Assembly (NCBI GenBank): GCA_030704615.1
Contig: CM060732.1
Location: forward strand, 75,206,001 to 75,270,000
Source: Takakia lepidozioides
Taxonomy: Eukaryota; Plantae; Bryophyta
Length of the DNA stretch: 64,000 nt
Direction: 5' to 3'
The translations under genes and the position numbers were made by a program. Under the pieces are notes generated by a model. The model worked only from the letters and a program-made list of their open reading frames with translations, did not search any database and was not told where the DNA came from. Position 1 is the stretch's first letter. Every line of letters starts with the position of its first letter. Positions 33,988 through 59,614 of the stretch are shown piece after piece.

Positions 33988-34158
33988 TGTCGTGCGCATA
34001 CATATCGTACACAACTACATCGCTGTCCAAAACCACACAACACATAGTATACCACTAGTCCACCACTAGGCCAGCCACTAGTCCAACCACTAGGCTACAA
34101 CTAGTCAGTCACTAGGCTGCCACTATGCTGCCCACTATGGCAGTCACTAGTCCACACA
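33988..34158 (-). repeat. 3' LTR of Gypsy copy 1 (171 bp) with internal CTAGTGG-like mini-repeats
   Basis: Begins TG right after the PPT and ends ...TATGCGCACGACA. The last ~55 bp match 53081-53135, and similarity stops exactly after CA in both copies. Confidence 0.75.
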
Positions 34159-34418
34159 ATCGCCCCCCTAGCTGGTGCTTAGGTCCCTCTAAGTCCAGGT
34201 AGCCACAAGATGTGATAGTGACCATAGCCTCACTAAGTCCTCCACCACTATCCCTACTACACTCAAACTCGATAAATCAAGAGGTCGGGTGCAAGAGTTG
34301 CCCCATCGTTAGTCGCCGTCTTGCAACCTGTGAACTTGAGCTTGGGATCTCATGTATTGACTCCTATGAGCTTGGCCTCCCATGTCTTGTTAGCTGCCTC
34401 CAGTCATGTCCACTGCCA

Positions 34419-36989: not shown

Positions 36990-38000
36990 GAGACCATCGA
37001 GGGAAGTATACTCCGCACTCTGCGTTGCTCAGCCAGAGCCAAGCTGATAATCCAGGTCAAGCAATTGAGATCCATTGCTTGCCCCAACACTTGACGATGT
37101 GATGCCTCAGAAAGAGACGACACCGCCGTGGTACTAGTGGTAAAAACCATTGCCCGCTCACGCTCGTCAGCATTAGGCTCCACTAACTGCTGCAACTGAG
37201 CATCCCACAGGAGGCCAGGTCCACTATCCCGGAAAGCATGCGATCCTGGGAAGCTGAGCAGTGTAGGTAATGCTGACTCGGTGGTTGACACCACCTTGTT
37301 TACCATGGCCAAAGGCGACATGGTCATCGTGTCTCACACGCTGAGACTGCCTTCTGTGTCCAGAATGCTATCCACTGTGAGATGTGCTGGCCGCTGCACA
37401 ACCCATCAAATGCACGCTTGAGCAGTGCGGGTGACATCAGTTAGTCCACCATAGCCGTGGACGATGAGCCCGTGACCCCACTGTAGCTGCATCTAGCAAC
37501 ACTGCTGACCCAAGCCATGACCGGGACTTGATGCACACTGGCCATCACCCTGGCCCGAGAATCGCCCATCAGGGGCACATTCTCCAAGATGTATGCTGGA
37601 GATATAGCTTGACGAAGCTGCAAGTGGCGCCAAACCCGCACATCTCCCAAAACAGACCCGACCTCGAGTCTCGCAATCCATTGTCATGCCCAGCTGATGA
37701 ATGCCCTTGGCAGGGCCAACCTGCCACTAACCAGATCAATGGAGCCAACCCGCTCAAATCCTGCGCCCCAACAACGAAATGTCTGCTAGCAAGGCCTGCT
37801 GATATCCATGAATTGCAGACACTGACAACAACTCAGGGGGTACCGCCACCAACTGAGCAAAATGGCGAAGTGAAACACATCGTGCAGTCTCATCCCTCTC
37901 CACATACAGGTAACGCCGAACTCGTAATATGCCTGTAACACAGCAGCCAATCCGGTGCTGATCCCGCCACAAAGTCCAGGAAGAAAAATGCCTTCATCCG
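36990..38000 (-). pseudogene. C5 cytosine DNA methyltransferase domain (copy 1, frameshifted)
   Basis: Motifs IV (VAGWPCQG), VI (ENV), VIII (HRPR), IX and X are recognisable across frames. The motif I region near the gap is indel-rich. Confidence 0.88.
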
Positions 38001-38115
38001 GATACTGCCACACAATAGGTGTGGTGTCCAATGGAGACAACTGAGGAGGGTCCTGGGCTGCAATCACCGAACTCTCCTCCTCTCCTGACGTTACAAAAGC
38101 CTACACCCAGGCTTG

Positions 38116-38615
38116 NNNNNNNNNNNNNNNNNNNNNNNNNNNNNNNNNNNNNNNNNNNNNNNNNNNNNNNNNNNNNNNNNNNNNNNNNNNNNNNNNNNNN
38201 NNNNNNNNNNNNNNNNNNNNNNNNNNNNNNNNNNNNNNNNNNNNNNNNNNNNNNNNNNNNNNNNNNNNNNNNNNNNNNNNNNNNNNNNNNNNNNNNNNNN
38301 NNNNNNNNNNNNNNNNNNNNNNNNNNNNNNNNNNNNNNNNNNNNNNNNNNNNNNNNNNNNNNNNNNNNNNNNNNNNNNNNNNNNNNNNNNNNNNNNNNNN
38401 NNNNNNNNNNNNNNNNNNNNNNNNNNNNNNNNNNNNNNNNNNNNNNNNNNNNNNNNNNNNNNNNNNNNNNNNNNNNNNNNNNNNNNNNNNNNNNNNNNNN
38501 NNNNNNNNNNNNNNNNNNNNNNNNNNNNNNNNNNNNNNNNNNNNNNNNNNNNNNNNNNNNNNNNNNNNNNNNNNNNNNNNNNNNNNNNNNNNNNNNNNNN
38601 NNNNNNNNNNNNNNN
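38116..38615. other. Assembly gap (500 N)
   Basis: Run of exactly 500 N. The sequence after the gap does not continue the Gypsy element. Confidence 1.
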
Positions 38616-39060
38616 ACCACTAAGTACACTGGAAGGAAGAGAGTGGGAAGATATTCAGGTCATGTCAAGACATGGACAAGACCCATAAGGGTCATTGTCA
38701 ATAAAGACATAAACAGCCTTGATAGGCACTATCTCTCACATTTCCAGTCTTGTCAACTCATCCCCAAAAAGACACCATCCAATCCCCAAGACAAAACAGG
38801 GTGGGAGGGCGGGGTTTGTTCTTTGTGTGGGACAAAGATAAGATATTGTTGTCCTGTGCATGCTGCAAGGCCTCTTGTTCAGCGTACATATACCAGCAGC
38901 TTACCAAGTCAGCCATGAATTATGGCAGGTCATGCATCAGCCAAGGCAAAAGGACCAGCCTGCATTTTGTCAGAATCCTCAGTATCCCACCAAGCAGTCC
39001 AACTTGATCAGGGAGAAGAGGGGGCAACAATGAAAAAAATGGGTTGGGGGGGGGGGGGTG

Positions 39061-40960
39061 GTCAGATGGTGGGGTCAGCTGCGGCAATATGTCCAACACC
39101 AGATTCCTAAGTTAATCGACTCTATATCTTTGAAACAGACCGCCCACCCGACCTGTCAAACAGGCTAAGTCCTGCAGAAGACAGTAGAAGAGATTCTCAA
39201 GGACCTGGACCTGGAACCGCAAGTCTTCACACCTGCTGGTAATTCTGACTTAGAGCTGTAGTGTCCCACCATGTCTGTTGCCATGAGATTTTCTGATGAA
39301 ATGAAGTTAGGCAAAAACTCTTCCCTGAACTTGTTTCCAGTCAGTGACATGGGGAGGAAATCTTAGATGACCTCAAGGGTCTACCACTTCGCACTAGACT
39401 GAAATTTAAACTCGGGGCCGGAAGCCTCTCTCACCAAAGAGACGCTCTCTTCAAATCTATCAAGGGAATTGTGCATGTACCTCTATTTACTAACTTTGAA
39501 AGTCTCGAGGCTGAGCCAAAAGCCCAACCCCTTATGAGGCCTAGTGTTTTGATCTCACACACAACAGATTGATGCTTTTTGTGAAGGGATTTGTAGAGGA
39601 TATCTGGAAAACCTGGATTAATTCTATATTGAAGGTAGTCTTACTACAACTCATCCCCTGACAGAGGTAGGATCTGTCCCTTTTGTTTCCCCAAAGAGGG
39701 GCAACAAAGAAAACAGAGAAGTGGGGGGGAGGGAGTGAGTGAGCAGCAACAACTCCTTCTGTTCTACTCTCTTTTAAGCTCCCGACGAGATAAATTCAAG
39801 GTCAGCTGGTGGGTTCAGCTGCAACATATGTCCAACACTAGATGTCTTAAATTAATCGACTCTATAATCTTGGAAACAGGACCGCCCACCACCACCTGTC
39901 AAACAGGGTAAGTCCTGGTAGAAGACAGTAGAAGAGTCTCAAGGACCTGGACCTGGAACCGCAAGTCTTCACCCTGCTGGATAAATCTGACTTAGACTCT
40001 GTAGTGTCCAACCATGTCTGTGGGCAACCTGAAGACATTATTCATTTTCTGATACACTGTCCGGGGTTCTCTCACCAAAGAGACGCTCTCTTCAAATCTA
40101 TCAAGGGAATTGTGCATGTACCTCTGTTTACTAACTTTGAAAAAGTCGAGGCTGAGCCAAAAGCCCAACCCTTTCTGAGGCCTAGTTTTTGGGCAACTCA
40201 CACACAGCAGATTGATGCTGGTGTGAAGGGATTTGTAGAGGATATCTGGAAAACCCGGATTAATTCTATATGTGAAGGTAAGTCTTACTACCACGTCAGC
40301 CCCTGATAGAGAAAGGATCTGTCCCTTTTGTTTCCCCAGAGAGGGGGCAACAAAGAAAAACAGAGAATGTGGGGGGGGGAGTGACTGAGCAGGCAGCAGC
40401 CTGCTCAGTCACTCCCCCCCCCCCCCCCCCACCTTCTTTTCTTTTCTTTGTTGCCCCCTGATGTATCCCTCTCACTCCCTCTCTCTGTCTCTCTCTGTCA
40501 CTCTCTCCCTCTCCTTCTCTCTCCTTCTCTTCTGTGTTGCTCTCTTTTAAGCTCCCGACACCCTAAATTCAAGGTCAGATGGTGGGTTCAGCTGTAACAT
40601 ATGTCCAACACCAGATATCCTAAGTTAATTGACTCTATATCTTGGAAACAGGACCGCCCTGTGAAACAGGGTGAGCCCTGGGAGAAGAGAGTAAAAGAGA
40701 TTCTCAGGATCTGAATCTGGACCCGCAAGTCTTGACCTTGCTGGATAAAACTGACTTAGAGAGTGTAGTGTCCAAAGCCATGTCTGTTATCAGAAAATTG
40801 TCCGATGAAAATGAAGTTAGGAAGAAAACTTCCCTGAACCTGTTTCCAGTCTGTGACATGGGGGAGGACATCATGGATGCGCTCAAGGGTCTATCCACTC
40901 TTGCACCAGACCTAAATTTAAAAGTCAGGGCAGGAAGACTACCTTTGAACAGTAAACAGA
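39061..40960 (+). mobile_element. Three overlapping, rearranged 3' fragments of a non-LTR (LINE) retrotransposon
   Basis: The same block GTCAG(A/C)TGGTGGG(G/T)TCAGCTG...ATGTCCAACAC recurs at ~39061, ~39801 and ~40573. Translations RWWVQL.HMSNTRYPK, LKVRAGRLPLNS and CGQPEDIIHFLIHCPGFSHQR..WKTR resemble the post-RT and zinc-knuckle region of LINE ORF2. Confidence 0.65.
40342..40459. repeat. Inverted repeat / hairpin
   Basis: Perfect 24-bp arms 40371-40394 and 40399-40422 around loop AGCA, extended imperfectly by GGGGGCAACAAAGAAAA / TTTTCTTTGTTGCCCCC. Confidence 0.9.
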
Positions 40961-42060
40961 AGCAGAGAGGAAAGGGAGAGTGAAATTTCCCTGACGTACC
41001 TCTGCTGCTACTGGTGCTTGAAGCGAGCTGCTGCGGTGATGTCGCGGCTGCCAGCGGCGCGAGTCCCCGCCACTGCAGGGTGTCTCTCCCCGCTCACCAT
41101 GGCTCTCTCTCTCTCTTCCTCGTTAGGTCGCGCCTCTGCGCGGCGTTCCTACCAACAATGGAGAGAGACATCAGCCCGTGCTTAGGGCAAGAAAAAAGAC
41201 AGAAAGTGAGGGAGGAGGCGGTGCTTACCTTGGGCGTTGGAGCGGCATTGGGCAAACTCCTTGGGGCCTTGCGACCACCTCGGGCTCAGCAGCAGGTGCG
41301 TTTCTCCTCCACCCTAAACCCCACTCTCTGAACTACCTCTCTCCCAAAGAACAAACGAAAAAGGGAGGGGAAAGAGATGCTTCAAGCACTTAGGGGAAAA
41401 AAAAAGGCGCGGCACCCACGTGCAACGCCCGGCCCGTCGCACGCCTGCGCCCGCCCTTTTTTTGAAATGTAAAAGTGAATTTTGCAACGGTTGGGCGTCG
41501 TTTCTTGCGACCCCCGGCCATAAAAGTAAAAAAACACGTCGCCCCCCGCGACGGCTGTCCGTCGCGGGGTGCGACCACCAGGTAAAAAAACAAAAAAGAC
41601 TCGTCGTCCATTGCGACGCCAGGGTGTCGCAGGAGGCGACGGCCGACCTTTCTGGATTTAGGGTTTAGGGCCTTTTGGGTTTCTTAGTTTTTATTTTTAT
41701 TTTTTACTTTTTCATATGGTACTGGGTTAGGGTGTTTGCTTTTTTTTATGGTGCTAGGTTTTGGATTGGCAGTTTTGGTTGTCTGGGGTTAAAAGGATAA
41801 ACGGTGTAATTAGGATTCACATACCCAAAATGTGGTTCAATCTGAAATCGCAAAGCGCTGGGTCTCAACAAATTTTTCCATAGTGTGAGCATCCTAAAGA
41901 TAGAACGAGAGGAAGGATTTATTGTCTTGGGCTCTAGCACCATAGGGATGCTCCGCCTTTGGTTACCAATTTTGAAAGCCCCGAGGCTGAGGCATAGGGT
42001 TTTTTTGCCAACGGTTTTTGAGAAATTAAAGTGTTGGTGGTGTGTGTTAATTAGGATGGG

Positions 42061-42457
42061 ATGGTGAGGAAACATCGACCCGTCTCCCTCGAGGATGGGG
42101 AGGTAGTACCACACATCGATTGTGGCCCTAGAGTGACCATTTTTCGTGGCAAGGAGGCACCCATTGCACCTGATCCAATACAGGCTGCCGGGCACAATCG
42201 TAGAAGGGACCGGGGCCAATTTTCAGGTGATGCGGAGGATGTTGACACTCCGGGATCAAATCGGGCGCGCCGCGGGTTGCCCCCTCGCGGGCCACCCTGT
42301 CCAACCACGTCCACCTTTGACCCCCCCGACAGGATTGAGTGTTGGTGCACTAAGTGTTGGGAATGGATACCGCCGGGCGGCACCAGACCACCGAGGCGAC
42401 GACCGCATGTTGTCGAAAAACATTACAAGAAGAACAAGATTGCGGATGCGGCAAAGG
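42061..42457 (+). CDS. Probable first exon of the CACTA transposase (transposase-associated Cys/His domain)
   Basis: IECWCTKC...VVEKHY resembles the C.C.KC...V..H motif at the TnpD N-terminus. Ends at donor AAG|GTGAGT. Confidence 0.55.
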
Positions 42458-45453
42458 TGAGTGCTTTTCCCACCCCTCTCATTAACATTCATTCAAGGTA
42501 CATTTAGGTTTATCTAATAATATAGTATGATTGGTAAGCATACATGAATCAAAATTACGACGTAAGTATTGATGCGTTGTTCACTACGCACATTGTGGCC
42601 ACGACTTGATGCCCAAGCTCGCAATCACATTGCACACGAGGCATTTCGCGCCGGTCTACTTGCAGTTTCAGGGCAGGGTTGGTCTCACCTTGAGGGAGGT
42701 GTTGGAAGCCGTCTTTGACACGAAATCTGAACTGTGTACGGGCCATACGTTGGCACCGATATTCCACCGATACTTCAACATTCCAAAAGGATTTCAACAC
42801 CAAAGGGAGCACAAAAGTGCCTTATGTGAAATTCTGCAAGTGCTGGAAGAAGAGGCAGAAGAGGTACACAGATTCGAAGAATGAAGCAAGGCATCCGCAC
42901 CATACAGTGGGTTTCAAAAAGGAAATCAAGATTCGGTGGGCTATCTTTGCATCAAGCTTTGTGGGTCGACTTCCACAGGGGCTGTCAATGAAACAGCTTG
43001 CACATCTGAAGAAGGGCCCTGCACATCAGTCTGCATTCAGTGGATCTCAAAGAGTGGATGGTGCACTGCGTTCTCAAGAGTTGAAGGAGCTTTTCTCAAC
43101 AGCCGCCGCCAATCATGCAGTTCTGGTGGTTCTGACAATGAAAGAGAGACACATGGATTGTTGCAATTTTGTGGCAGCCCATGGGAGGATCCAATCTATA
43201 AAAACGCTGCGGAGACAAATGCAGTGGGAGGGATCACTTTGAATGGTTTTTTTTCTAAGGGCAGGTTGAGAGAGTGTTGTGGTGTACTAGACTTCCAGGC
43301 ATTCATTGTGTAATGGAGCGCGCCAACCCCGCTCTCCACCACAGGTGCTAGCAGTAGCTGCTGCATACCCTGAGGTCTCTCCCACTAGATGAGCCACTTC
43401 TCGGCGGCGCACAGTTGGTGCAACAGAGGAGGTTGCTCCATGCGAAATTGACCTGCTCTTGAGATCGCCCAAAGAAGTGTAGCGAAGGGATAGCTGGCAG
43501 TTTCAGGGCGCGCAGCACTGATGGCACTCAAGTGTGCTCTTGCTAGCATTTGGAACGCTCTCTATGCCCACATCTACAACCAGCTTCAGCTCCCAGTCCA
43601 CCCACATTTCTGCACCTTCCTCGCCATTTTCGGCCATCTGAGGAGCCTTGTTGCGACCAGTCCTAAAGGTAGTGTTGCCTCGTCCACCCTAACCTCCCGA
43701 CAGCAGCAGCTCCTGCTTCCATGGAGTTCCAGCAGAACATCGCCATTCCTTCCGTCTTCCAAACGTCGTGGCCTTTGTGTTGACATTGGCTTCACTTGCT
43801 TTAACCTTGAAAAAAAAAAAAAAAAAAAAAAAAAAACTATTATGAAGGTTTGAAGAGGAGTCCCAAGGAATTCTTAGGGAACCTGCAGTGAATCCCAACA
43901 GACGTGGGAACAGTTTTTAATGGTGAGAACGTTTTGGTGTTAATTTTTTTTTTTAAAAAAAAAAATGGCATTTTGATCTAATTTGAAGGATTCAGAGCCT
44001 GGTTGGTCATATCTTTGTCAAATGAGCTCCGTTTGACTCAGTTCTTGAGGGGATAGCTGCAGAAAGGGGAAATCTACCTATCTAGACCTGGTTTTTGTTT
44101 TTGGGACTCTGCTAAAAATCTATGGAATTTTTAGAGTGTGAGTGTGCCATGAAAGATCCACAATCCTGTCTCTAGAACCTGTGCTGGTCTATATGAGAGA
44201 CAAATTGGTGGATGTACTCCTTGCATGGCTGGGGGAAATGAGGACGTAATTGAAGGGCAGGTCTCTTCTCTTAGTCTGTGCACACAAGGTTTTGAGTGGA
44301 GAACAGTTGGACGAGTTGATTGCATACTGGGAGTCAGGCATTAGCAGTAGACAACAGACTGCTGTAGTTGGCATTGAGGGCCTCAATATCGCCTTGGACA
44401 GTCAGAACTCTGTTGGAGCCAGCAGTTCTGCAGCTGTAGGTGAAATACCAAAGTGGGTGAAAGCTAGGCTTGGAACACAGCCAAAGACAGCCCCGGGGAC
44501 CAAGGTGTTCAGCCACAAGGCCGTGGTGTACTGGAGCAGAGGAGCAGGAGCTACACAAGTTTGTGCAATCAGACATGGTTGCAGCCGGATACGCTCTGCA
44601 CAGGGCAACCACGAGCGGGGGTTCATCAGCAATGACATGTTTGTTGTGCGTGAAGGAGATGCAGTCATTCGCAATGAGGACACCCGCAACCGTCTCAAAG
44701 CTTTCGAGTTTGAGAGACTATCAGACCCTACCTTTGTTTTCTTTAGTGTTCAGTGAGCGGGAGATAGGGGAGTATTGCTTTGTCTCTACCTTGGCAGAAA
44801 GAGGAGGAGGGTTGGTTAGAGCGAGCTACTGTAGCTTGGGACAAGGTTAGTGGCAGGTTTCTGGACATAGATATACCTCCTACACCTTACCATCACGCAG
44901 AGCGAGGCACTTTGAGAGAAGTCTGGAAGTTGATAGCATAGATCAGGATTAGATCTTGCTTGGGCGGGCTTCTATTCTTCCCCTCCATCTCTGTACTATT
45001 TTCATTACCTTGTACTCGTAGTTGCCAAAGCCTCTCTTGGTGGAGGCCAGTCAGTCCGGGGTTTTGGGCTGGGATATTCTGCAGGATCAGCATTGCAGCT
45101 GGATTTTGGTGTGGGGGTGTTGATGTTTTGATTTCTTGTGTTTGGATCCCCCCCAACACCTGCATGCTTGACTGTGCGCCATGTTGGTTTTGTGTGGGCG
45201 CTTGCTTTCATAGGGATTAGGCCGGATTTGATCACCGGTCAATCCTAGAGTATGCTGTCGGTGGTGAGGCTGGAGTGATGACCAGCAAGACCACCAGTGT
45301 TTCTTCTATGGTGAGGCTGGGTTGATGACCAGCCAACCATAGGAGTTCTTGCGGTGGATGCAGGTGCAGGTGCCCTGAGCCATTGGGATATGACCCTTAA
45401 ACTGCAACAGGTGCCCACCCGTGTCACTATTAGATTAGTACTAGAGCCTTATA

Positions 45454-47070
45454 GTGTCACGTGGAGGAGGTGCACATTGTGAGTGTCATTACGGAGTTAC
45501 CCAGGGTTTTGAGGGGAGTACGGCTACAGGCAGTAACAGTGAGAGTGGGTTCACAAGACGAGGTATTCGGTTCAGACCACCTTCACCGCCACCCTCAATT
45601 ACTGTAGAGTCAGACACAGACTCGGAGGCTTCATCAACAGGTGTGCACTTTCATTCGCCATTGTTGTGGGACGACATGGAGGAGATGTATGGAGCTACCA
45701 AGGGGCCTCGTAGGTACTCTGGAGCTGTGGGCACAATCGAGTTGGATGACTTTATCCAGGAGTTCGACAGCTGGTGTGATTTGCAGCAGATGCGCAATCC
45801 ACAGCTATTCACCCCATTCATGGCGTGGAAGGGACTGTTCCAGCATTTGGAAGGCCCGCCTATGGACGATTACCACGAGTTCAGGCGAGGACATGAAGCA
45901 GAGATTGAGGAGTGGAGGATGTATTGGTCACCTGACTACGTCTCCATTACTCGAGGCACGACGCGACCAGTAGCTGCATCAGTACCAATAGCTCCCACTG
46001 CCAGCACTAGTAGTGGAGCAAGTAGTGCTGGTACTTCTGTAGGTGGTACCAGTTCAAAAGGTGCTACTACTCCTCCTGCCACGACTACAACACATGTGCC
46101 TAGATTCAACCCGGTGGTGGAGTTCTTCCAGGAGTTGCGGAGGAACTACCAAGGTGTACGGACTGAGAAGCTGCGAAGTTTGCAAGACTTCCAGCGCAAA
46201 CCCAGTGAGAGCCTGCGAGAGGCGTACACTCGTATGAGGCGCTTGATAAGTGTGACCCAAGGGGTTACTGAAGCTCAGGCAATCCAGTTTTGGTATGGAA
46301 TTCTGGACAAGGAGCTCAAGAGAAGGGTGCGAGATGCAACCTGTTACAAGCAGCCCAACCCACATTAGCAGATGTGTTTCTGCTGGCTGAGCGGATTGAG
46401 CTCAACATGGTGGAGGAGCGAGTTGTTACCATTGGATTTGGCAAGGACATGCCTGCACGAGGCGCAGCTGCCAGCCCACAGGCACAAGGTACTGCCCAGC
46501 AGCGTGGTCAGGGGGGCAAGGTTTCCCAGCCCAAGTTCCATGGAGCTTACAGGGGACCTCAGGTGCAGAGGCCCGTGGCATCTTTTGCAGGCCAACAGTA
46601 ACCAGGGGTGATATGTTGGACATGTGGAGGACCCCATGTCAAGAGAGATTGCCCAGAGAGTGGCAGAAGGCCGGCACAAGCACAGCCTGCACAGTTGCAG
46701 TGTGGGCATTGTGGCAAGTATGGGCATGGAGATGCCCAGTGTTATGACTTGCATCCTGAGTTGCGCCCAGGCCAGTTCCAAGGGAACAATGGTGGCCGGG
46801 GGCGAGGTGGACCAGCCCAGAGAGGACGAGGTGGTCAGGCACGAGGTGCAGGCCAAGGGCAAGCTTAACATGGCCAAGGACGCGGAGGTCAGGGTGTTGA
46901 TCAAGGCATGGCCAACCGGCTTCAGCAGCTAGAGCAGAGGCTCGCTGCCATGGCTATAGCTCAGGCGGTACCGGCTCCCAGGCGGGATGGTCCACCTCCT
47001 GCTCCTGAGGGAGGAGATATGGGAGGCATGGGATTTATGTGCAGAGCAGCACTACCACTAGAGCAGGTGG
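45454..47070 (+). pseudogene. Gag with two zinc knuckles (frameshift ~46345, TAA at 46599 and 46866)
   Basis: DDFIQEFDSWC and KLRSLQDFQRKPSESLREAYTRMRRL (capsid-like), CWTCGGPHVKRDC and CGHCGKYGHGDAQC, followed by an RGG-rich tail. Confidence 0.85.
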
Positions 47071-47639
47071 AGGTGCTGCAGCCGTGACTCGAGGAGCAGC
47101 ACGAGTTCCTGAGGCACGAGGTGCAGAGGTGGAATTGGATCCACAGCGTGGGGAGGCAAGCCGTCAGGCGAGGCTTCCTCAGTCATTCACATTGGCGGAG
47201 ACTGTATCGACGCCATCCATGGCACCTAGTTCTCGCCCGACTGTTACCGAGGCGGAGGTTATCATGCCATTGGGGAGAGCTACACGTGCAGCATTGACTC
47301 CTGCTGCCAAGGCTAGTGCGGCCGGTGTGTTATTGGGGGCAGCCACCTCTGTGTGTCAGGCCCCACTGTTCTCGGCAACAATGATTGCGACGCCGGGGGT
47401 AAGGCCAGCTGCAGTGTTCAGACTAGCAGCAACACTCTGTGAGAGTGGGGAGGTCATTTCATCTTCTGCGGAGTTAGTGGAAGGTGTAGTGGCAGAGGGA
47501 TCCTCGGATTTGAGGGTCAAGACTGCCACGGCTGCGCCCTGGCAAGCTGCAGCTGCCAGGTTGACGGAGCTGCCAGCTAGGCTAGCCTTTGAGCGCGCCA
47601 TGGTGACACCTGGAGTTGTCTTGTTAGACAACCAGGGAG

Positions 47640-48030
47640 GCATTTTCACTTTGAGTGGACCGGCAGGCAAGAAGTACCGGCCACTGCGGGTCTTGTTGGA
47701 CTCGGGAGCTCAGCCACTGATGTTGGGCAGAGCTGCTATTGCAGGTTTGGGCCTCATGGAGGCGGATATGGAGCCTTGCCCTTTCCAGATACAGACATCT
47801 CTGGGAGGATCAGAGCAGGCTCGGGGCATGACACGACATCAGTTGGCCATTAGACTGCAGCCGGATCACCCTATCGATGGCTCAGTAATGCGAGCCAAGG
47901 CCATTGTGACAGACGCAATCTCTTACGATGTCCTCGTTGGTGGGGCAGTGTTATACCCCATGGGCTTCACCCTGGACTTTTGGGAGGAGTCAGCATCCTA
48001 CGGGCCTGGATGGCAGTCAGGCGATGGTCG
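47640..48030 (+). CDS. Retroviral-type aspartic protease domain
   Basis: VLLDSGAQPLML active site and YDVLVGGAVL C-terminal motif, in the same frame as DNMT motifs I-IV (ORF 47039..48835). Confidence 0.9.
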
Positions 48031-48409
48031 CCATGCACAGCTCCCTGTGACATTCATTGGGGGTATAGCGGCTGCCCAGCGGGGCAAGATGCCAACACTA
48101 GCCGCCTTTATAGCTGCAGTTAGTTGGCCTGGAGAGTTGCTGGAAGGCAATGCCCATGCAGAGGATGTGCCACCTCCAGAAGAGCAGGATGACATGCATG
48201 GTATGGCGGAGTTGCCTGCCATGGTTGCTCACACTCCATTATGGGGTACGAGCAAGGATTTGCAGCAGGTTGCTGATCGACGGGTACAACAAGCCTGGGT
48301 AGAGGCTTTTTTTCCGTCAGGAGAGGAGGAGAGTGCGGGTATTGCACCAGGACCACCTCAGTTGTCGCCATTGGACACCACACCTCTTGTGTGGCAGCGG
48401 CCGGATGAA

Positions 48410-49380
48410 GGCATATGCTTTCTGGACTTGTTTGGCGGGATCAGCACTGGATTGGCTGCAGTGCTACATGCAGGTGTACGAGTTCGACGTTACCTGTATG
48501 TGGAGAGGGATGAGACTGCACGACGCGTCTCACTGCGCCATGTTGCTCAGATGGTGCAGCAGTACCCTGAGTTGTTGCTGGTGTCTGCAGTTCGTGGATA
48601 TCAGCAGGCCTTGCCAGCAGACATTGCGTTGCTGGGGGCGCAGGATTTGGAGCGGGTTGGCTCCATTGATCTGGTAGTGGCAGGTTGGCCCTGCCAAGGG
48701 CATTCATCAGCCGGGCATGGCAATGGATTGCGAGACTCGAGGACGGGTCTGTTTTGGGAGATGGTGCGGATTTTGCGCCACTTGCAGCTTCATCAGCTGT
48801 ATCTCCGGCATACATCTTGGAGAATGTGCCACTGATGGGTGATTCTCGGGCCAGGGTGATGGCCAGTGTGCATCAAGTCCGGTCGTGGCTTGGGTCAGCA
48901 GTGTTGCTGGATGCAGCTGCAGTGGGGTCACGGGCTCATCGTCCACGGCTTTGGTGGACTAACTTGATGCCACCCGCACTGCTCAAGCGTGCATTTGATG
49001 GGGTGCAGCGCCAGCACACCTCACCGTGGATGGCATTTTGGACACAGGGAGGCAGTCTCAACGTGTGAGACATAATGACCGTTCGCCTTTGGCAGTGGTC
49101 AACAGGATGGGTCACCCACGAGCAGCATTACCTACATGCTCAGCTTCCCAGGATCCCATGCTTTTCGGGATGTGGACCTGGCCTCCTGTGGGATGCTCAG
49201 TTGCAGCAGTTAGTGGAGCCTAATGCCGACAAGCGAGAGCGGGCTATGGGGTTTTCCACTGGGACCACGGCGGTGCCTTCTCTTTCTGAGGCATCACGTC
49301 GTCAGGTGTTGGGGCAAGCAATGGATCTCAATTGCTTGACCTGGATTGTCAGCTTGGCTATGGCTGAGCAACGTAGAGTG
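48410..49380 (+). pseudogene. DNMT3-like C5 cytosine DNA methyltransferase domain inside the polyprotein (four apparent 1-bp deletions)
   Basis: Canonical motif order: I FLDLFGGISTG (~48419), II YVERD, IV IDLVVAGWPCQ (48683-48697), VI YILENV (48820-48828), VIII AHRPRLWWTN (48937-48948), IX RERAMGF (~49234), X RRQVLGQAM (~49298). Confidence 0.95.
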
Positions 49381-49653
49381 CGGAGTGCACTTCCCTTGAC
49401 GGTCTCTCTGCCTACCGAGACGGTACAGGCAGCGAGTGGGGGCGAGCCGGTGAGGACCACGGGGTGTAGACATCCATGGCACACGTGGGAGGTGCTCGAG
49501 GTTCAGAGGGAGTTGGCAGCCAAGGCAGCTGTGATGGATGAGGTTGGGGATTCTTCTCGGGATGAGGAGGTTCTCAATGATGAGATGATGGGGCAGGATG
49601 AGGCCTTGTCATTGACTGAGCAGGAAGGGAGTACTGCTCAAGAGGTTGCAACA

Positions 49654-49662
49654 TAGCAACCA
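49654..49662 (+). promoter_or_regulatory. Candidate stop-codon readthrough signal TAG CAA CCA (UAG-CAR-YYA)
   Basis: Single in-frame TAG between the DNMT tail and the RT frame. Identical in copy 1 (36743-36735, minus strand). Confidence 0.7.
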
Positions 49663-52290
49663 CGGGACGCGTCCTCTACCTCTAAGCCCACTGGACTTAA
49701 GGTTGCAGTTACGGAGGACAATTGGGAGCCTGACATTGGACCCATTGTCACTGGAGGAGAGAGACAACGTATACGGTGGTTCCTGAGGGCTTACAGGAAT
49801 TGCTTTGCCTTCAGTTTGAAGGACTTGGGAACACTGAAGGGTCAAGAGATCCGTATTGAGTTGGCCACTGACACGCCAATCTTTCGGAGACCCTATAGAT
49901 ACAGTGACATGGAGAGGTCTTTGATTCAGATGAGGACTCAAGATCTCTGGGAGGCAGGTTTGGTGGAGCTCTCTAGTGGAGAGTATGCTTCAGCCACAGT
50001 GATGCCAGCTAAGAAGGATGTCTATGGCAATTGGACGGAGAGACGTATGTGCGGTGATTACCGGCCTGTAAATCGTCAGACCAAGTCCGATAGGTATGCC
50101 ATGCCGACACCAGAGGAGATCTTTGATGCCATTGGGCATTCCAAGGTCTTTAGCACGTTGGATTTACGATCCGGATATCACCAGTTGCCGATCAAGGAGG
50201 CGGATAAGCAAAAGACGGCATTCTGGGGGATCAATGAGCACGGGAAGGATTGCCTATACCAGTGGCGGTTCTTACCATTTGGGCTTAAAAACGCTCCCGC
50301 TGAGTTTCAAAGAGTCATGGACAGGATTCTAGCAGGGGTGGAGTTTGCTCGGTGCTACATAGATGACATCATCATCTTTAGTGCTACGGTGGAGGAGCAT
50401 GAGAGACACCTTCAGGGGGTATTTGAGTGCTTGAGGGCGCACGGATTGAAGTTACATCCGGGAAAGTGCAAGTTTTTCCACAACCAGATTGAGTATTTGG
50501 GACACATGATATATCCTGGAGGATTGGGGGTACAGCAGACTAAGGTAGGGTCCATTGCACAGGTTCCACGCCCCACGGATGTGAGCCGAGTTCGAGCTTT
50601 CATGAGGTTAGCAAACTATTACAGACGGTTTGTTAAGGGATTTAGTGCCATTGCAAACGCTCTAACCAAGCTGACCAAGGTGGACCAGGAGTGGCAGTGG
50701 GAAGATGAGCAAGAACAAGCTTTTCAAGAGCTCAAGGTGAGGTTGACCTCGGCGCCCATCTTGAGACGACCTATCAGGGGGCGTCCTTTTCAGCTGCATA
50801 CAGATTGGAGCATGCTGGGGCTTGGAGCGGTGCTCACACAGGTGGATGATGAGGGAAGAGAGTTCGTAGTGGCTTATGCTAGCCGCTCGAACAATGCTGC
50901 AGAGTCTAAGTATAGCTCATATGAGGGAGAATGCTTAGCTGCAGTGTGGGCCGTGGCACACTTCAGGTGCTATCTATACGGCAATCTCTTCACCCTTGTC
51001 ATGGATCACCAACCACTCAAGTGGTTGATGGAGTCAGACAAGCTTACGGGGAAGCTTGCACGGTGGGCACTCATCCTTCAAGAGTGTGACTTTCAGGTGG
51101 TGCATCGACCGGGTTTGGTCAATCGCAATGCAGATGGGTTGAGTCGCAATCCATGCACGAGCCAACAGGATGACACTGGAGCTCGGTGGCATGGTGAGAC
51201 GGACGAGGAGATGGTGCCCGGATGGCATGCATCTGCATTTCTGTGTATCTTGGCAGCGGAAGGCCAGGTTGGACCTGCAACAGGGATGACTATAGATCAA
51301 TTGTCTGAGGACCCTGAGGCCAGCGATGAGCAAAGTGGCGCCAAAGATATACATGAGGATTCAGTTGTGTTGGACTACCTCCGCACTGGAGACACGGCAG
51401 CCACTGTGACTGCCAAGGAGAGGGATCGGATCCTACAACGAGCCAAGAGGTTCAAGTGGGAGGGGACACACCTGCTCCGAGTGTGGGAGGATGGTCGAGT
51501 AAGGATTGTGCCTCACCCAATACAGCGGGCACGGTTAGTGCGCCATGCCCATGAGGAGTTGGGGCATTTTGGGAAGCGACGCACTCATAGTCTACTGCAG
51601 GGGCAGTATTGGTGGCGTGGTATGCACACAGAGGTGCAACAATTTGTGGCTAGGTGCATGGTGTGTGACAGGGTGCGTGCTTCATTCAACGCCCCTACTC
51701 CACAATTGCACCCTCTTCCGATCATGGGATTGGGCTACAGGTGGAGTCTTGACTTCGCAGGGCCGTTGCCACTGACCATGCGCCACAACAAGTACGTGTT
51801 GGTGATGGTGGAGCACTTCTCCAAGTGGATTGAATTGGTTCCATTGCCTGATAAGGCTAGTGAGGGAGCTGCGTATGCATTCTTGGATTGTGTGCTTAGC
51901 CAATTCGGTGCTCCAGCTGAGGTACTCACGGACCAAGGGAGAGAGTTCTTGGGGGAGTTTCAGGCTTTGTGTGACAAGGCCTTGATAGACCACCGCACCA
52001 CTTCTCGGGATCATCCTGAGGCCGATGGCTTGGCAGAGAGAGTTGTTCAGACAGTAAAGAGGGGTTTGCGCAAGTATGGCTTGCAGAAGGGACACCTAGG
52101 AGATTGGGACCTTCAGTTACCCTGGTTAGCCATGGGCTACAGGTTCAGCAAGCAAGCATCACTTGCCTCCTTCTCACCATACTTTCTTCTCTTTGGCCGA
52201 GAGCCGGATTTGCCTACATCCATTCGCAGAGAAGCTGCTACAATTCTTAACCTTGACGATCCGGACGTGTGGGCACGTGCATGTGAGTAG
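49657..52290 (+). CDS. RT - RNase H - integrase, uninterrupted frame
   Basis: RMCGDYRPVN, LDLRSGYHQ, LPFGLKNAPAEFQ, YIDD, FQLHTDWS, HEELGH..CMVC, SLDFAGP, TDQG and LAER. The frame is open from 49657, upstream of the annotated TTG start. The TAG at 52288 is CAG in copy 1. Confidence 0.95.
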   Translation, partial: QPRDASSTSKPTGLKVAVTEDNWEPDIGPIVTGGERQRIRWFLRAYRNCFAFSLKDLGTLKGQEIRIELATDTPIFRRPYRYSDMERSLIQMRTQDLWEAGLVELSSGEYASATVMPAKKDVYGNWTERRMCGDYRPVNRQTKSDRYAMPTPEEIFDAIGHSKVFSTLDLRSGYHQLPIKEADKQKTAFWGINEHGKDCLYQWRFLPFGLKNAPAEFQRVMDRILAGVEFARCYIDDIIIFSATVEEHERHLQGVFECLRAHGLKLHPGKCKFFHNQIEYLGHMIYPGGLGVQQTKVGSIAQVPRPTDVSRVRAFMRLANYYRRFVKGFSAIANALTKLTKVDQEWQWEDEQEQAFQELKVRLTSAPILRRPIRGRPFQLHTDWSMLGLGAVLTQVDDEGREFVVAYASRSNNAAESKYSSYEGECLAAVWAVAHFRCYLYGNLFTLVMDHQPLKWLMESDKLTGKLARWALILQECDFQVVHRPGLVNRNADGLSRNPCTSQQDDTGARWHGETDEEMVPGWHASAFLCILAAEGQVGPATGMTIDQLSEDPEASDEQSGAKDIHEDSVVLDYLRTGDTAATVTAKERDRILQRAKRFKWEGTHLLRVWEDGRVRIVPHPIQRARLVRHAHEELGHFGKRRTHSLLQGQYWWRGMHTEVQQFVARCMVCDRVRASFNAPTPQLHPLPIMGLGYRWSLDFAGPLPLTMRHNKYVLVMVEHFSKWIELVPLPDKASEGAAYAFLDCVLSQFGAPAEVLTDQGREFLGEFQALCDKALIDHRTTSRDHPEADGLAERVVQTVKRGLRKYGLQKGHLGDWDLQLPWLAMGYRFSKQASLASFSPYFLLFGREPDLPTSIRREAATILNLDDPDVWARACE

Positions 52291-52790
52291 CGTGCAGAGT
52301 TGTTCAAGAGAGTCATGCCCTGGCTTTCGAGAACCTTGCCATTGCACAACACCGTGATACGTTGAGGTATGCTACCATACGTGGTGGGGGCTATCGTCCT
52401 GGGGTTCGGAGATTCAACCCTGGTGACTATGTCTATCTGCAGCAGACTGCTCCTACGACCCTGGATGTGACTGCAGGACGTGTTATTTTGAGGGTTCGAG
52501 AGGTCTTGCCCTCATGCGTCTTGGTCTTGGAGGGTCGGGATGGCATAACTTGGAAGGACCATGTGCGTAATTGTGCGCCATGTCACCTTCCGAATGTCGA
52601 TGGCAGGATTGACCCAAACCTGGCAGTGGTATCTGCAGGTTTGAGGTGCATGTTGTGTGGGTCTGCTAAAGGGGCAGCCACCATGCTGGTGTGCGATCGA
52701 TGCTCTAGAGGTTGGCATATGGGATGCTTGACTCCACCTCTTGAGATGGTTCCAGATGGGGATTGGTTATGTCCACATTGCATTGGATAG
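52291..52790 (+). CDS. Integrase C-terminus with C4HC3 PHD finger (1-bp deletion near 52320)
   Basis: CMLCGSAKGAATMLVCDRCSRGWHMGCLTPPLEMVPDGDWLCPHC has all eight ligands. Confidence 0.92.
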
Positions 52791-53050
52791 TGGGAGTGGA
52801 TACAACCATGGAAGGCTAACAAGCAACGCAAGGCCCAGCTACTAGGAGACCTTGAACACACGAGATCCTGGCTCAAGTTCACAGATTGCAAGACGGCGAC
52901 TAACGATGGGGCTACTCTTGTACCCGGCCCCTTGGTCTATAGAGTTTGAGTACAATAGGGACAGTGATAGAGGACTTAGTACGGCTGTGGCTATTACATC
53001 TTGTAGCTATCTGGAGGTAGAGGGACCTATCCACCAGCTAGGGGGGCGAT

Positions 53051-53135
53051 TGTGACAGACTACTTTATTGTGCATATATGTGTGGTGTGGTTTGGACAGC
53101 GATGTAGTTGTGTAGCGATATGTATGCGCACGACA
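53051..53135 (+). repeat. 3' LTR of Gypsy copy 2 (85 bp)
   Basis: TGTGACAG...GCGCACGACA directly after the PPT. CACTA coding sequence resumes immediately afterwards. Confidence 0.72.
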
Positions 53136-56100
53136 GGATGTGCAAGCCATGGAGGATCTCTTAATGCATCATGTGGGCGCTGATGCATACCATGAAGAGG
53201 GAACCCGGCCAATCGATGATCCTGAAATGGCCCCCTCAAATGACATGGAGAGGGAGGGGAGAACTCCCTTGTACGAAGGGGCGAAAGTGAGTCGACTTTC
53301 AACAATCTTACTTTTGCTCAATCTTCAAATTTGATTTGACATAAGTAATGTTGGGATGTATGCCTTAATGCGAACTATTGCAGACTATATCCTTGCTCCA
53401 CACTTGAAACCCAAGATGCCACGGTCGCGGAAAGATGCGCGCGAAATCTTGGACTATGTGGGGATGGGCTATAAGATTTTTCATGCATGTCCATGTGATA
53501 AAACCCTATACTACGGAGAGAATTTGCATCTCACCAAGTGCCCAAAGTGCAAGAAACACCGATATCGAGATGATGTCCAAGGGAAAAAAGTACCACGCAA
53601 GGTATAAGCACCATTCCCCCTCGCATGGAGATTATTAGAGAGTAGTACTCATGCAAGATCTGATTGTGGTTTTGGAAGGAGTGAGTGAGGAGTGGAAGAA
53701 GCGACGTTTGGTTTTGACCATTCACACCCAAATGAGGGAGAGGCTGCATAAAGGGAAATACATAAGGTGTTGTATTATGTGTGCTAATGGGATGATTATA
53801 TGTGGGGGGCGTGGGGTATTTCATCCTAGAAAATGCATTACTTTCTGATCATCCCGCGATTGAGGGCACAGTACCGAAGCCCCAAATTGGCCAGACTCAT
53901 GAGATGACACGCCTCGCATCGGAGCCCCCCGAGAAAGGTGTGCGGGCCACACGATTCACAAACATGGAGGCATATTGAAGAGATGTGGCCTTTTCTCTTG
54001 GAGGACCCACGACATGTCCACCTCGGCTTCTCCTCGGATGGGGTCAACCCATTCTCTGTCTAGTCATGTAGTCATTCCACTTGGCCGGTGACCATGGTGA
54101 AATACAACATCCCTCCGTATCTTTCAATTAAAAAAGGTCATATCATGTTGGCTGCCATTGTGCCAGGTGAGTGTCCTCATTTCATGTTTATTATTGCCTT
54201 CGACTTTACATTAAACTTCTGATCTTTGACGCAATTCGGATGCAAGATTGATGAGTGACATAATCATGGAGTAAGACATGTAATTCATTTTGTAGTATAA
54301 TCTGCATATTGGTGGAGCATTGAAACAATGATGTGAATGTCTCAAAGGGAAAAAACAAGTGACAAACATGGACACGTACTTGCGACCTCTTGTTGATGAA
54401 CTTAAAGAGCTATGGAGGGGGGTCCCGGCATTGGATGCTTCGCTTGACCCTATGGCCGGACAATCTTTTCAGATGAGATGCATCTTGCTTTGGACAATGC
54501 ATGATTATCCAGGTATATTATGTTCCCCATGAACAACCCGCGTACATTCACTTGTCAATGCCGGATGAGGATGAGGATTGGGATTGATTGAAGTAGTGGC
54601 GACAGTCTTGTGCACCGTAGTGGGGTAGATGGCATTATGGGCCACACACATGACAACTTTTTATTTTTGCTAATGTGGCGGGATGTGTAGTACAGGACTA
54701 ACTGTTTGCTCAGGGCTAAGCACCAAGGGGTACCATGCATGCTTGCATTGTGGCGATGATCTTGATGCACATAGCTCCCGCCATCTTCACAAGATGGTGT
54801 ATCCCAACTACCGCAAATTTCTTCCTATGAGCCATCGATGGAGAAGAAGAGAGAAACACTTGTTTGATGGCAAAGATGAAGTACGTCCCCCCCCATGACA
54901 CCGTCCGGGCAGTTTTGGGAGGACCGACGGAAGGAGGCCCATGTGGGCACGGACGGTGAAGTGGACGTGCCCGGCATGAAACGACTTTTAATCTTCTACG
55001 AGTTGCCCATATTGGGCGGTACATATTTCACAAAAACACCGTCAATATCCCTATGCATGCATGTGATATTGCACATTTGGTATGCGTTGCATTGTCACTT
55101 TCACGTAAAAAAATTTGTGTAAGTCTTTGTAGGTGGGGATATATGTAGGACCTGAAGATTCGTCATCTTCTCCCATGCATATTGAGAAGAATGTCTACTC
55201 GTCCTTTTTTCAAGTTCTTCATGGCACGCCGGCAAAGAAGAGAGTGGCTGCAAAAGGAGATTCTCTCGGTGTTAGAAAGGAGCTTGAGGAGCAGGGTCGC
55301 ATGCGCCATCTATGGGCCGAACAAAATGGCGTGGACCCAAAGGGTGTTGTACGGTGGAAGTATAGGCGCGCACCTTGGCAATGGACAAAGGAGGAATACA
55401 AGAAAGTGATAGCCACCATAAGTGCTGTCCGAACACCAACTGGTTATGGGTCATCCTTCCGTACGAAGTTCAGCGAAGAAGACGGGGTCCATGGTTTGAA
55501 GTCTCATGACTACCACAATCTATTGCAAGACATCTTGCCCATTGCAGTACGTGGGACATTGACTCCCAAGTTTTGTGAGACAATCTATAGATTAGGAGGC
55601 TTGTTCCGGTGGATTTGCTCCAAAGAGTTGGAAGAAGCATATTTTCCACGCATGAAGAAGGAGGCGGTGGAGGTAATGTGTATGTTGGAGATGCACCTTC
55701 CTCCCTCCTTCTTTGACATCCAACTGCACTTGGTAGTGCACTTAGTGGAAGAGGCTTCGATTTCTCGGTGGATGTACTTCCTTGAGCGTTATATGAAGAC
55801 TTTGAAAGGATTTGTAAGACAAATGGCGCACCCGGAGGGTAGCATGGCGGAGGGGTATACGTTGCAAGAAGCTATGTTCTATTGCACGGAGTACATGGCA
55901 AGGGTGGATGAGGAATCCCCTCGGATGTGGAAGGAAGAGGAGGATGCATGAACCAAGGACATCGTTTTGCCCAAAAAATCGAAGATGGTAAAATTGCCGA
56001 CCTTGGTGATTGAGCAAGCGCATGACTTCATACCGAAGAACACCCTATCCATACATGAGTGGGATGCAAGATACAATAATCTTGTTCAGCAATGAGAGAA

Positions 56101-57103
56101 GGAGACGCTTGCATGGAGGCGGAACCATCCAAGGCCGGTTACTAGACGCCCACGACGAGGAGCGGGCCGCCGGAATGTTCCTTCACAAAATTTGCCCATG
56201 GAATTGCAGCCTCTAAGTTCATTCCAACAGTGGCTTCAGACTTCAGTTTATAACGCCGTTGCTGAAGGAGAGGTGGTTTCAAATTTGGTGCAAGACATTG
56301 CAAGGGGCCCCTCTCAATTCGCGACCTCATACACGGCGGTTTGGGTTCACGGTCGTCATTTCCGCATTCGTGCTCTTGACATGAAGCGCAAAACAACCTT
56401 TGATTATGGCTTGTGTGCCACATATTGGCAAGACTCTGTGTGGGGCAAGGGAGATACACGACCTGCTATGAGCAAACTTGAGTACATTGGAGAGCTTGAG
56501 AGCATACTCCAACTTCAGTATACAAGGTACCGGCCTCTTCTCTTCAAGGGAAGGTGGTTCCAGCCACATTTTGTGGGGCCCTCCGCAACACTAGTGCAAG
56601 ATGATTGTGGTTTCATGCGCATCAATGCAGATAGGTTCAACCCTACTCATCGTCCCTCCGATGAGCCTTTTTCACGGCCTTCAGACATGGAGCAAGTTTT
56701 CTTCTCCGATGACAAAACAAGAGGGGGGAATTGAAAGGTGGTTGTGCATGCTCAGCCAAGAAGAAGACGTATCTATCATGGTCTCGGATCTCCATGGGGT
56801 GAGGCAATTGCGGTGGATGGAGAGACTGGTCATAATGATGCTGATGATGGAGGTTGGGTAGAGGGGGTAGAAGAGGATGATGACGCCCCGAACAATGTAT
56901 CCTGGACCCTATATGATGAAGCTCTAGAAGATACGGATGTTGGAGAAGGAGACGAAGACACGGCCATTGACAACGAGGTGGAGGATGATTCGGAGGTGTC
57001 TTTTGAGAGCCGGGCCATTTATGACGATGACTTCGATGACGAAGAAGACTTGCAGCTTGATGAGAATGAAGAGGCTCCGGATGATGATGTTCAAGTTGAT
57101 TAG
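53136..57103 (+). pseudogene. CACTA TnpD/Tnp2-like transposase, multi-exon, several in-frame stops
   Basis: IFHACPCDKTLY..CPKC..RY, LGFSSDGVNPF, STWPV, YLRPLVDELKELW, WTMHDYP, STKGYHACLHC, MHIEKNV, GLKSHDYH, PPSFFDIQLHLVVHL, RWMYFLERYM, PEGSMAEGY and LFKGRWF..DEPF...QVFF. Stops at ~53332, ~53906, ~54061, ~55949 and ~56732. Confidence 0.92.
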
Positions 57104-57344
57104 ACACAAAATCAAAGCTATATAACAATTCTCGCACCGAACTGGACCCATCCCTTCGATTGATTGTACATGTACATGCATATTGTACTTTATTTCTATG
57201 ATTCATCAAATATGGCTGTGGCTAGTAGCCTTTCAAGAAAGAAGGCAGAGGCAATGAATATGTTGGAGCAACACATACAGATGTGGTATCAAGAGAATTA
57301 TCAAAATGAATATCACAATCTACAAGAAGGTCCACAACAACAAG

Positions 57345-58056
57345 CTAAACCATAAAGAAAAACAAACACCCTTCCCCCAGTACCATATGAAAAAAAAAAA
57401 AAACTAAGAACCCCCAAAGGCCCTAACCCTAAACCTAGAAAGCCCTGCCGTCGCCGCCTGCCACCCCACGCGTCGCCAACTGCGACGCGTTTTCTTGGGT
57501 TTATGAGGCCGGGGGTCGCAAACGGCGACGGCCGACCGTCACCAACTGCAACCGTTTTTTGAATGGATTTATGAGGCCGGGGTCGCAAACGGCGACGGCC
57601 AGCCGTCGCAAACTGTGACATGTTTTTTTTATTTTGTAAGAATAGGGCAGCCGGGCAGTTTGCGACGCCCAGCCGTCGCAGGGGCCTTTTGCCCTTCATG
57701 CTACCATGTGACGGCCGGGCGTCGCAAGAAAGGGCTGCAATGAAAGGGAAGACAAGAAATGGTTTTTTTTCCCGGCGTGCGACGACAGGCCGTCGCCAAA
57801 AAGGGCTGCCTTCTACCCTTCGCTGGGGGCGACACGTGGGCGTCGCACGGAAGGGCTACCATTTTCCCTTCATCACTCCGTGCGACGGCCAGGCGTCGCC
57901 GCCTGGCCCCGGCGCCAGGTTTCACTCCCGCGGGGTTTGTCTGCGACGGCTCGGCGTCGCAAACACGCTCCGCGGGGTTGACGTCGCACGCTCGGCGCCG
58001 CGCGGGGCGTGGGGGCGCAGCTGGCGTCGCAAACCCCCCCCCCATTTGCTGTAGTG
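57345..58056. repeat. CACTA right subterminal repeat region and TIR
   Basis: Many (T/G)GCGACG and CGTCGC(A/C) motifs in both orientations, a ~40-bp direct duplication at ~57500 and ~57569, ending in TAGTG. Confidence 0.88.
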
Positions 58057-59363: not shown

Positions 59364-59614
59364 GTGAATGTCGGCAACGACATTCAGAAAACTCGAGCGA
59401 GGAACTTTGACTAAAAAATCAATGCACCATGCAAAACGTACAATAAATCTCAGAGGCTCACAACAGCTCTGGATGTGAATGTCGTCAACGACATTCACAA
59501 AATTCCATTCAAGAACACTACAAATACACCGAAGTTCCCTAATCCAGGTGAATGCAATCTCTAGCTTTGGAAGGACACAACCATAGAAGTGAATGTCGGC
59601 ACCGACATTCACTT
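59364..59614. repeat. Intronic palindrome cluster 1 (3 copies, ~111-114 bp apart)
   Basis: GTGAATGTCG-N4-CGACATTCAC at 59364, 59475 and 59589. Confidence 0.9.

Follow-up and report, generated by a model that had tools for sequence, protein, structure and literature searches.

Retroelements that encode their own cytosine DNA methyltransferase (DNMT) of the DNMT3 type were described by de Mendoza et al. (2018, PMC5890265). KnitGypsy-Dnmt3 of Klebsormidium nitens carries Dnmt3 in Pol, has DIRS-like repeats and shows a Ka/Ks below 0.2. De novo methylation of CG was obtained in yeast with the dinoflagellate SymbioDIRS-Dnmt3 enzymes, the only such enzymes reported there as active. The authors proposed methylation of the cDNA, and they raised RNA methylation for the enzymes of long interspersed nuclear elements (LINEs). 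Why transposons carry their own silencing enzyme has been an open question since then, and the hosts described so far do not lend themselves to manipulation. Here, we analysed a stretch of 64,000 nucleotides from the bryophyte Takakia lepidozioides (GCA_030704615.1, contig CM060732.1, positions 75,206,001 to 75,270,000 of the forward strand, hereafter called the window), which harbours two copies, A and B, of a Gypsy-type retroelement with a DNMT3-type enzyme.

The window family resembles KnitGypsy-Dnmt3 in its non-permuted Dnmt3, its Gypsy-type enzymes, the location of the DNMT between the protease (PR) and the reverse transcriptase (RT), its DIRS-like split repeats and purifying selection. 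It differs by its host, a land plant, by a DNMT that ends the first open reading frame (ORF1) together with Gag, by a readthrough-type stop before RT and by a C-terminal PHD finger; the word PHD is absent from the main text of PMC5890265 and the three supplementary files searched. SymbioDIRS-Dnmt3 also has a retroelement-encoded DNMT3 and split repeats, but it has a tyrosine recombinase and represents an independent capture according to its authors, whereas the window family has a DDE integrase and 4-bp target duplications. Gypsy-7a_cRei (PMC9940879) similarly joins Gypsy enzymes to a PHD chromatin reader, but it has long terminal repeats (LTRs) and no DNMT is listed for it. DAM-LTR and EpiLTR elements (bioRxiv 10.64898/2026.05.21.726589) combine Gypsy enzymes with a chromatin reader, and EpiLTRs also with methyltransferases; the DNMTs of EpiLTRs have DNMT4 as their sister group and are stated there to be distinct from streptophyte Gypsy-DNMT3. 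In the parts consulted, that preprint and PMC12344493 mention 'streptophytes' without land-plant detail, and their supplements may list members; the portions consulted of PMC11982613, PMC9940879 and PMC12885004 contain nothing on a land-plant lineage bearing DNMT3.

The sequence-only reading that we followed up had named the Klebsormidium precedent correctly and knew of no land-plant case. Neither such a case nor the readthrough stop and PHD of this lineage is described in the literature searched, which leaves aside most subscription papers, Repbase and REXdb. The land-plant members extend a published kind, KnitGypsy-Dnmt3, and novelty holds within that literature. Since the conserved TAG breaks the continuity of the DNMT-RT reading frame, the window lineage is a variant of this kind. 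The family is broad and not special to the window.

The methyltransferase and the two window copies

In copy A, the non-permuted DNMT3-type C5 cytosine methyltransferase occupies 48389-49368 on the plus strand and is intronless, with its catalytic residues present. Motifs I, II, IV, VI, VIII, IX and X had been reported from the sequence, and all were located by translation in this order, including LFGGISTG (48428), the Cys of GWPCQG (48692), YILENV (48820), AHRPRLWWTN (48934), ERAMGF (49237) and RRQVLG (49297); YVERDE also lies within the domain. The proposed PF00145 search yielded a match that exceeds the curated cut-off (E 4.8e-10). A five-row family profile retrieved DNMT3A/B/C at E ~1e-18, ahead of DRM (3e-9), HhaI (1e-7), DNMT2 (1e-5) and DNMT1 (0.04). 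We also modelled the uninterrupted domain of a metagenomic relative, locus L020, with AlphaFold (pLDDT 95). All rows listed by Foldseek for this model are DNMT3 (best E 3e-19, TM 0.73/0.83 to 6f57), at ~21-23% identity to DNMT3A/B/C in the structural alignment (21% for the best row). The DNMT3 type is therefore top-ranked by both approaches. Among relatives that are 34-50% identical, the catalytic Cys is found in 30 of 31 aligned rows, the Glu of ENV in all 31 and the Phe of motif I in 30.

Two other identities were rejected. DRM is incompatible with the motif order I-X, and DRM structures match only positions 6-136 of the profile. Host plant DNMT3 is marked by a DUF3444 domain after the methyltransferase (Yaari et al. 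2019, PMC6453930), which does not follow it here; no Pfam match to DUF3444 was found in the window copies or the relatives checked. PpDNMT3a/b (PMC6453930) and animal DNMT3A/B/C share with the element enzyme a non-permuted DNMT3-type catalytic domain, and its predicted fold matches that of DNMT3A, but the element domain is embedded in a polyprotein, without DUF3444 and without PWWP or ADD domains, for which Pfam gave no match in the element proteins. The DNMT3-bearing retroelement is almost certainly a real feature.

Copy A is preceded by a 5' non-coding part (43890-45675, plus strand) whose left boundary is approximate and was placed by a depth step in sequencing runs of the host. Contig depth climbs between bins 43513-43883 and 43884-44254 from 793 to 178,376 in run X1 and from 0.5 to 197 in run X5; this climb at ~43884 was not seen in runs X6 or X7. 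The Gag part (45676-47060, plus; PF03732 E 4e-4 and translation) has two CCHC knuckles (46614-46652 and 46701-46742), frameshifts and stops, and its Gag is 56% identical to that of Marchantia Mp_4g09160. The aspartic protease (47588-48058, plus; LLDSGAQ, Asp at 47699) was assigned by motif and homology, with a weak Pfam match in copy A (E 0.06) and a better one in uninterrupted L020 (E 2e-4). An in-frame fusion of the DNMT to the protease had been claimed; it holds for motifs I-IV, which share the protease reading frame 47009-48835, but the remainder is split by four 1-bp frameshifts at about 48795, 49010, 49136 and 49171, all after motif IV. Downstream of the stop described below, ORF2 (49657-52290, plus) encodes RT (YIDD at 50356), RNase H and an integrase with HHCC and rve core (Pfam RVT_1, RT_RNaseH, Integrase_H2C2, rve), its tail being cut by a stop at 52288. 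The integrase C-terminal PHD finger follows at 52647-52781 (plus; PF00628 E 2e-11), then a G-tract resembling a polypurine tract and the terminal repeat B ending in CACGACA (53041-53135, plus), without the A2-B2 block of full-length copies.

Copy B (33988-38115, minus strand; 89-91% identical to copy A) comprises DNMT (38013-37028), stop (36743-36741), RNase H, integrase and PHD (Pfam rve, PHD) and repeat B ending in CACGACA. It has no RT, the counterpart of 49823-50623 of copy A being deleted, and its DNMT shows 14 small indels relative to the frame of relative L002. Its 5' part is lost, running into an N gap (38116-38615). Thus, copy B does carry the DNMT, as had been said of both copies, but its protease is not visible. 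Two copies ~90% identical do not suffice to make the DNMT a family trait; homologues do show it.

Both window copies are non-functional as assembled, and their frameshifts may reflect decay or assembly error; other copies in the host runs differ from copy A at the frameshift places. The family is highly repeated in the host, with 92,361 contig pieces of run X1 matching the stretch and a depth in X1 about a thousandfold above the adjoining flank, a depth that does not give a copy number.

The PHD finger has its best matches in the PDB to CHD4, PHF12, KDM5B/5A, ATXR5, DPF3, PHF21A, BAZ2A/B and UHRF1, which we take to read mostly unmethylated H3K4. In ING-type fingers, a Trp two residues before the His forms the K4me3 cage; this Trp is absent from the element PHD. 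These features suggest a resemblance to readers of unmethylated H3K4, a specificity predicted from sequence.

The conserved stop and the terminal repeats

Both window copies have TAG CAA CCA (49654-49662 on the plus strand in copy A) between ORF1 and RT, in the RT frame. The possibility that the TAG at 49654-49656 is a decay mutation was rejected, as the same stop is conserved in copy B and relatives. In 20 of the 21 closest loci a stop followed by CAR occupies this place (17 TAG, 3 TAA), the remaining locus being deleted there; CAR follows 2.6% of all TAGs in the loci. L020 has two uninterrupted ORFs and no more, with TAG CAG TTA between them; L022 shares this TAG CAG TTA, and the linker of these two loci is unalignable with that of the window. 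The stop context is common to three lineages whose synonymous sites are saturated. Of the seven Marchantia ORF1 models examined at the protein level, six end 94 residues past MDLN, the last DNMT motif. UAG-CAR-YYA is the tobamovirus readthrough consensus (PMC3159437). Three minimum free energy folds made without shuffles gave no convincing 3' RNA structure near the stop, and invariance within the host is based on the two window copies. Because the stop separates Gag-PR-DNMT from RT-RNase H-integrase-PHD, the window lineage probably produces the enzyme in amounts like those of the capsid, and UAG readthrough would quite probably give access to Pol.

In a second moss subfamily (L034, L037, L041, L043 and kin), DNMT and RT are not separated by a stop, and motif IV reads EC (WEC). 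An uninterrupted ORF spanning DNMT, RT and RNase H was found in the L034 subfamily only, and not in the window, L001-type or L020-type lineages.

No direct repeat or LTR pair flanks copy A, and its 5' A repeat with a TG end was not found, the A start of other host copies being missing from the window. In relatives, repeat A1 stands at the 5' end and the 3' end consists of the G-tract, B1, two bases, A2 and B2, with termini TGTCA.G and CA.GACA (TG..CA). The 29 loci that reach a PHD end comprise 15 full ones (B-NN-A, the junction spacer always being two bases), 12 that terminate with B1, both window copies among them, and 2 truncated by the edge of their contig. Host-run contigs with loose ends at 53136 (43 in X1, 4 in X5 and 1 in X6) continue with a two-base spacer and the TGTCA start. 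The 4-bp target duplications are exact in 8 of the 12 loci with both ends and have one mismatch in the other 4; two pairs share a site. A full element (L037:6042-15711) and a short one without A2 and one B (L069:536-9666) occupy the same insertion site, making L069 a short allele of the L037 insertion and showing B1 x B2 recombination. In elements with split repeats, this loss corresponds to the formation of solo LTRs.

The designation as Gypsy was upheld by the order of the Pol domains and the integrase, but not by the ends, which are split direct repeats and not an LTR pair. Three structural classes were rejected. The 3' repeat is not an LTR, relatives having A alone at the 5' end. A canonical Ty3/Gypsy LTR element would fit the order PR-RT-RNase H-integrase, the DDE integrase, the TG..CA termini and the target duplication, but not the lack of two complete LTRs and of a primer-binding site. 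A DIRS/Ngaro tyrosine-recombinase element is incompatible with the rve integrase, the absence of a recombinase match and the 4-bp duplications. Regarding the tRNA primer-binding site, no TGG was found within 8 bases past A1 in 8 of 8 loci; this is a simple test, and priming may be non-standard. A search for tRNA genes found none.

Family spread, selection and genomic setting

A protease-DNMT query retrieved 27 long proteins, 10 of them from Marchantia polymorpha (45-57% identity), 1 from Sphagnum fallax, 1 from Klebsormidium nitens and 15 others. Matches to an ORF2 query were found in Calypogeia, Riccia, Marchantia, Closterium, Klebsormidium, Tetraselmis and a Coleochaete transcript, and the family profile detected 437 clusters at E<=1e-30 among 1.84 billion representatives of 50% identity clusters. 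Two scans of viral contigs gave no relatives. From a metagenome scan that yielded 315 related stretches, we kept 80; the order GAG-PR-DNMT-RT-RH-INT-PHD (RH, RNase H; INT, integrase) was found wherever visible. These loci were chosen by DNMT motifs and so cannot reveal members devoid of DNMT. In matches selected by RT with at least 250 residues before it, DNMT is present in 9 of 9 inside the clade defined below and in 0 of 12 outside. The sequence-only reading would have been refuted if most members lacked the domain, which is not what these RT-selected matches show; two clade members with 214-217 residues before RT show no DNMT and may be too short.

We built an RT-RNase H tree with FastTree, 23 of 130 candidate rows having been dropped for short coverage. 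It contains a clade of 89 of 107 rows that includes the K. nitens element (Shimodaira-Hasegawa support, SH, 99). In a midpoint-rooted FastTree of 162 DNMT domains, all 35 post-protease rows, from Klebsormidium, Closterium, liverwort, moss and the window, belong to one 49-row clade (SH 97). The proposed phylogeny thus places the window with Klebsormidium, in a tree built without a host DNMT3 outgroup. All 85 rows with the DNMT between RNase H and integrase (RT-RH-DNMT-INT-PHD; e.g. P0283, P0303, P0321) fall in the other clade, a large sister radiation in which many members have EC for PC at motif IV. The K. nitens protein KFL_009030040 (PR-DNMT-RT-RH-INT) has a DNMT 43% identical to a Marchantia member (E 2e-53). 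It is presumably a KnitGypsy copy; its accession was not found in the 2018 supplements consulted. Both trees point to a common origin with the K. nitens element.

Selection on the DNMT is mixed, mostly purifying. The ratio of non-synonymous to synonymous substitutions (dN/dS) is 0.12 for L020/L022, and 0.17 (L034/L041) and 0.10 (L034/L043) in the subfamily without stop. Comparisons of window copy A with L001, L002 and L012 gave ~0.14, with dS near saturation. The dN/dS check suggested from the sequence is hence borne out in three pairs (0.10-0.17) but not in two decayed ones, treated in the next section.

Some relatives show other features. P0027 (RT-RH-DNMT-INT) has a C-terminal region without a Pfam match, whose motifs resemble those of an adenine methyltransferase. 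P0151 has a precomputed Dam domain (PF05869) and a PHD but no DNMT, like the DAM-LTR elements (bioRxiv 10.64898/2026.05.21.726589). P0211 (CAA9586175.1), a family member deposited as uncultured Synechococcales cyanobacterium, likely reflects contamination of a metagenome bin.

Copy A is nested in an element with Pfam DUF4218 and DUF4216 (41000-42700 and 53136-63000), domains that we take to indicate the CACTA type, and there is perhaps another insert in it at ~42665-43880. Copy B interrupts a decayed pentatricopeptide-repeat gene (30000-34090, minus). These two insertion sites do not prove any site preference. Beside the N gap, 38616-40900 holds three imperfect tandem copies, non-coding or LINE-like, possibly an assembly artefact. 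An 18-kb element at 10487-28574, likely Mutator-like, has long inverted ends of TGTAACCC-rich tandem arrays, a SWIM-domain transposase (15019-17964) and further ORFs (19957-23897, 25590-26303). The host genes at 1734-2870 and 4900-8931 code for an alpha/beta-hydrolase-like protein and an intron-split signal peptidase I; the former groups with mosses (SH 99), as an early branch among them in this single-gene FastTree.

Possible roles of the enzyme and their implications

We lean, cautiously, towards a streptophyte retroelement whose DNMT3 would be made at capsid level, enter the particle and probably methylate the cDNA newly made by the element, ahead of its integration. ORF1 would encode Gag-protease-DNMT3, and ORF2, translated by UAG readthrough, RT-RNase H-integrase-PHD. 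At a few per cent readthrough, Pol would be scarce and DNMT abundant; the conserved stop predicts a DNMT as abundant as the capsid. Packaging, already proposed from the sequence, gains support from the location of the DNMT within the Gag ORF upstream of this stop, and the protease would free the enzyme inside the particle. The internal B-NN-A junction would template both ends of the linear cDNA, replacing tRNA priming, and the two spacer bases would be those removed by integrase 3' processing. By methylating CG on the cDNA, the DNMT would mark the new copy before its arrival; maintenance methylation by the host would then keep this copy quiet or let it pass as self. The PHD may steer the integrase to chromatin lacking H3K4 methylation, a task performed by the ADD domain in animal DNMT3. 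Taken by itself, catalytic self-methylation of the cDNA stands, in our view, just above an even chance.

Several observations weigh against this proposal. The case is built on sequence and predicted structure. KnitGypsy-Dnmt3 gave no methylation in yeast, a result judged inconclusive by its authors (PMC5890265). EC replaces PC at motif IV in 5 of 31 aligned rows and in 12 of 29 motif-scored post-protease rows. The CpG ratio of the element (0.51) is close to that of the window (0.54), with 0.57 for the host gene in this comparison of CpG and CHG depletion, so that self-methylation has left no mark on base composition. The 21 stop-bearing loci are related to one another and not independent, and at the +6 base they deviate from YYA (CAACCC). 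Since the stop is missing from the L034 subfamily, capsid-level expression is not universal. Finally, DNMT dN/dS is 0.46 between copies A and B (confidence interval 0.30-0.75), with 0.16 for RNase H and 0.17 for integrase, and it reaches 0.86 and 0.85 in the decayed pairs L002/L012 and L002/L001, where RT gives 0.59 and 0.35.

Alternatively, the active enzyme might work after or beside integration, with the PHD finger directing it to the target site, to the inserted copy or, in trans, to other elements. Pairing a PHD with DNMT3 mirrors the ADD-methyltransferase arrangement of animal DNMT3, readthrough would also place a minority of the DNMT on the integrase-PHD polyprotein, and the subfamily without stop and the 85-row sister clade hold the DNMT near the integrase. 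In the window lineage, however, most DNMT molecules would be synthesised together with Gag and away from the PHD, and the host likely has DNMT3 and CMT enzymes that serve its genomic targets, as shown for Physcomitrium (PMC6453930). We consider this option unlikely. Slightly less probable still is a non-catalytic role, in which the domain would coat or chaperone cDNA or RNA in the particle or shield cytosines from host enzymes. A capsid-level amount would far exceed the catalytic need, and both the frequent change from PC to EC and the inconclusive yeast assay of KnitGypsy are compatible with such a role, but the catalytic Cys, the Glu of ENV and the S-adenosylmethionine-binding motif I are near-invariant across divergent sequences.

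Methylation of the element RNA, not DNA, appears very improbable: the enzyme would sit with Gag and the genomic RNA, and the 2018 authors raised this activity for LINE enzymes, but the match to DNMT3 is far better than that to DNMT2. Neutral capture of a host fragment as the source of the DNMT, with the TAG as a decay mutation, as the two broken window copies and the two pairs with dN/dS ~0.85 could suggest, is hardly tenable and already largely refuted by retention of the domain in Klebsormidium, Closterium, liverworts and mosses alike, the low dN/dS of three pairs, the lack of the host-type DUF3444 and the stop context shared by three lineages.

If the enzyme does methylate the element's own cDNA, a wider picture can be sketched, although we hold it as tentative and rather doubtful: a large green-lineage class with split-repeat replication without tRNA primer, a PHD-steered DDE integrase and particles filled with DNMT3 by readthrough, whose copies would be born methylated. 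The split-repeat ends, with their integrase footprints, suggest a mode of replication intermediate between those of DIRS and LTR elements, and programs that search for LTR pairs would presumably miss such elements. Several uninterrupted Gag-PR-DNMT ORFs occur in Marchantia polymorpha, annotated as hypothetical genes; as the lineage is present in this genetic model, activity of the enzyme, readthrough and methylation of the cDNA are open to experiment there. Inventories of bryophyte DNMTs and methylome work may be confounded by element copies. If this picture is true, many de novo methyltransferases of bryophytes including Marchantia belong to transposons but have been wrongly annotated as genes of the host, and such enzymes could write 5-methylcytosine whenever the family is derepressed.

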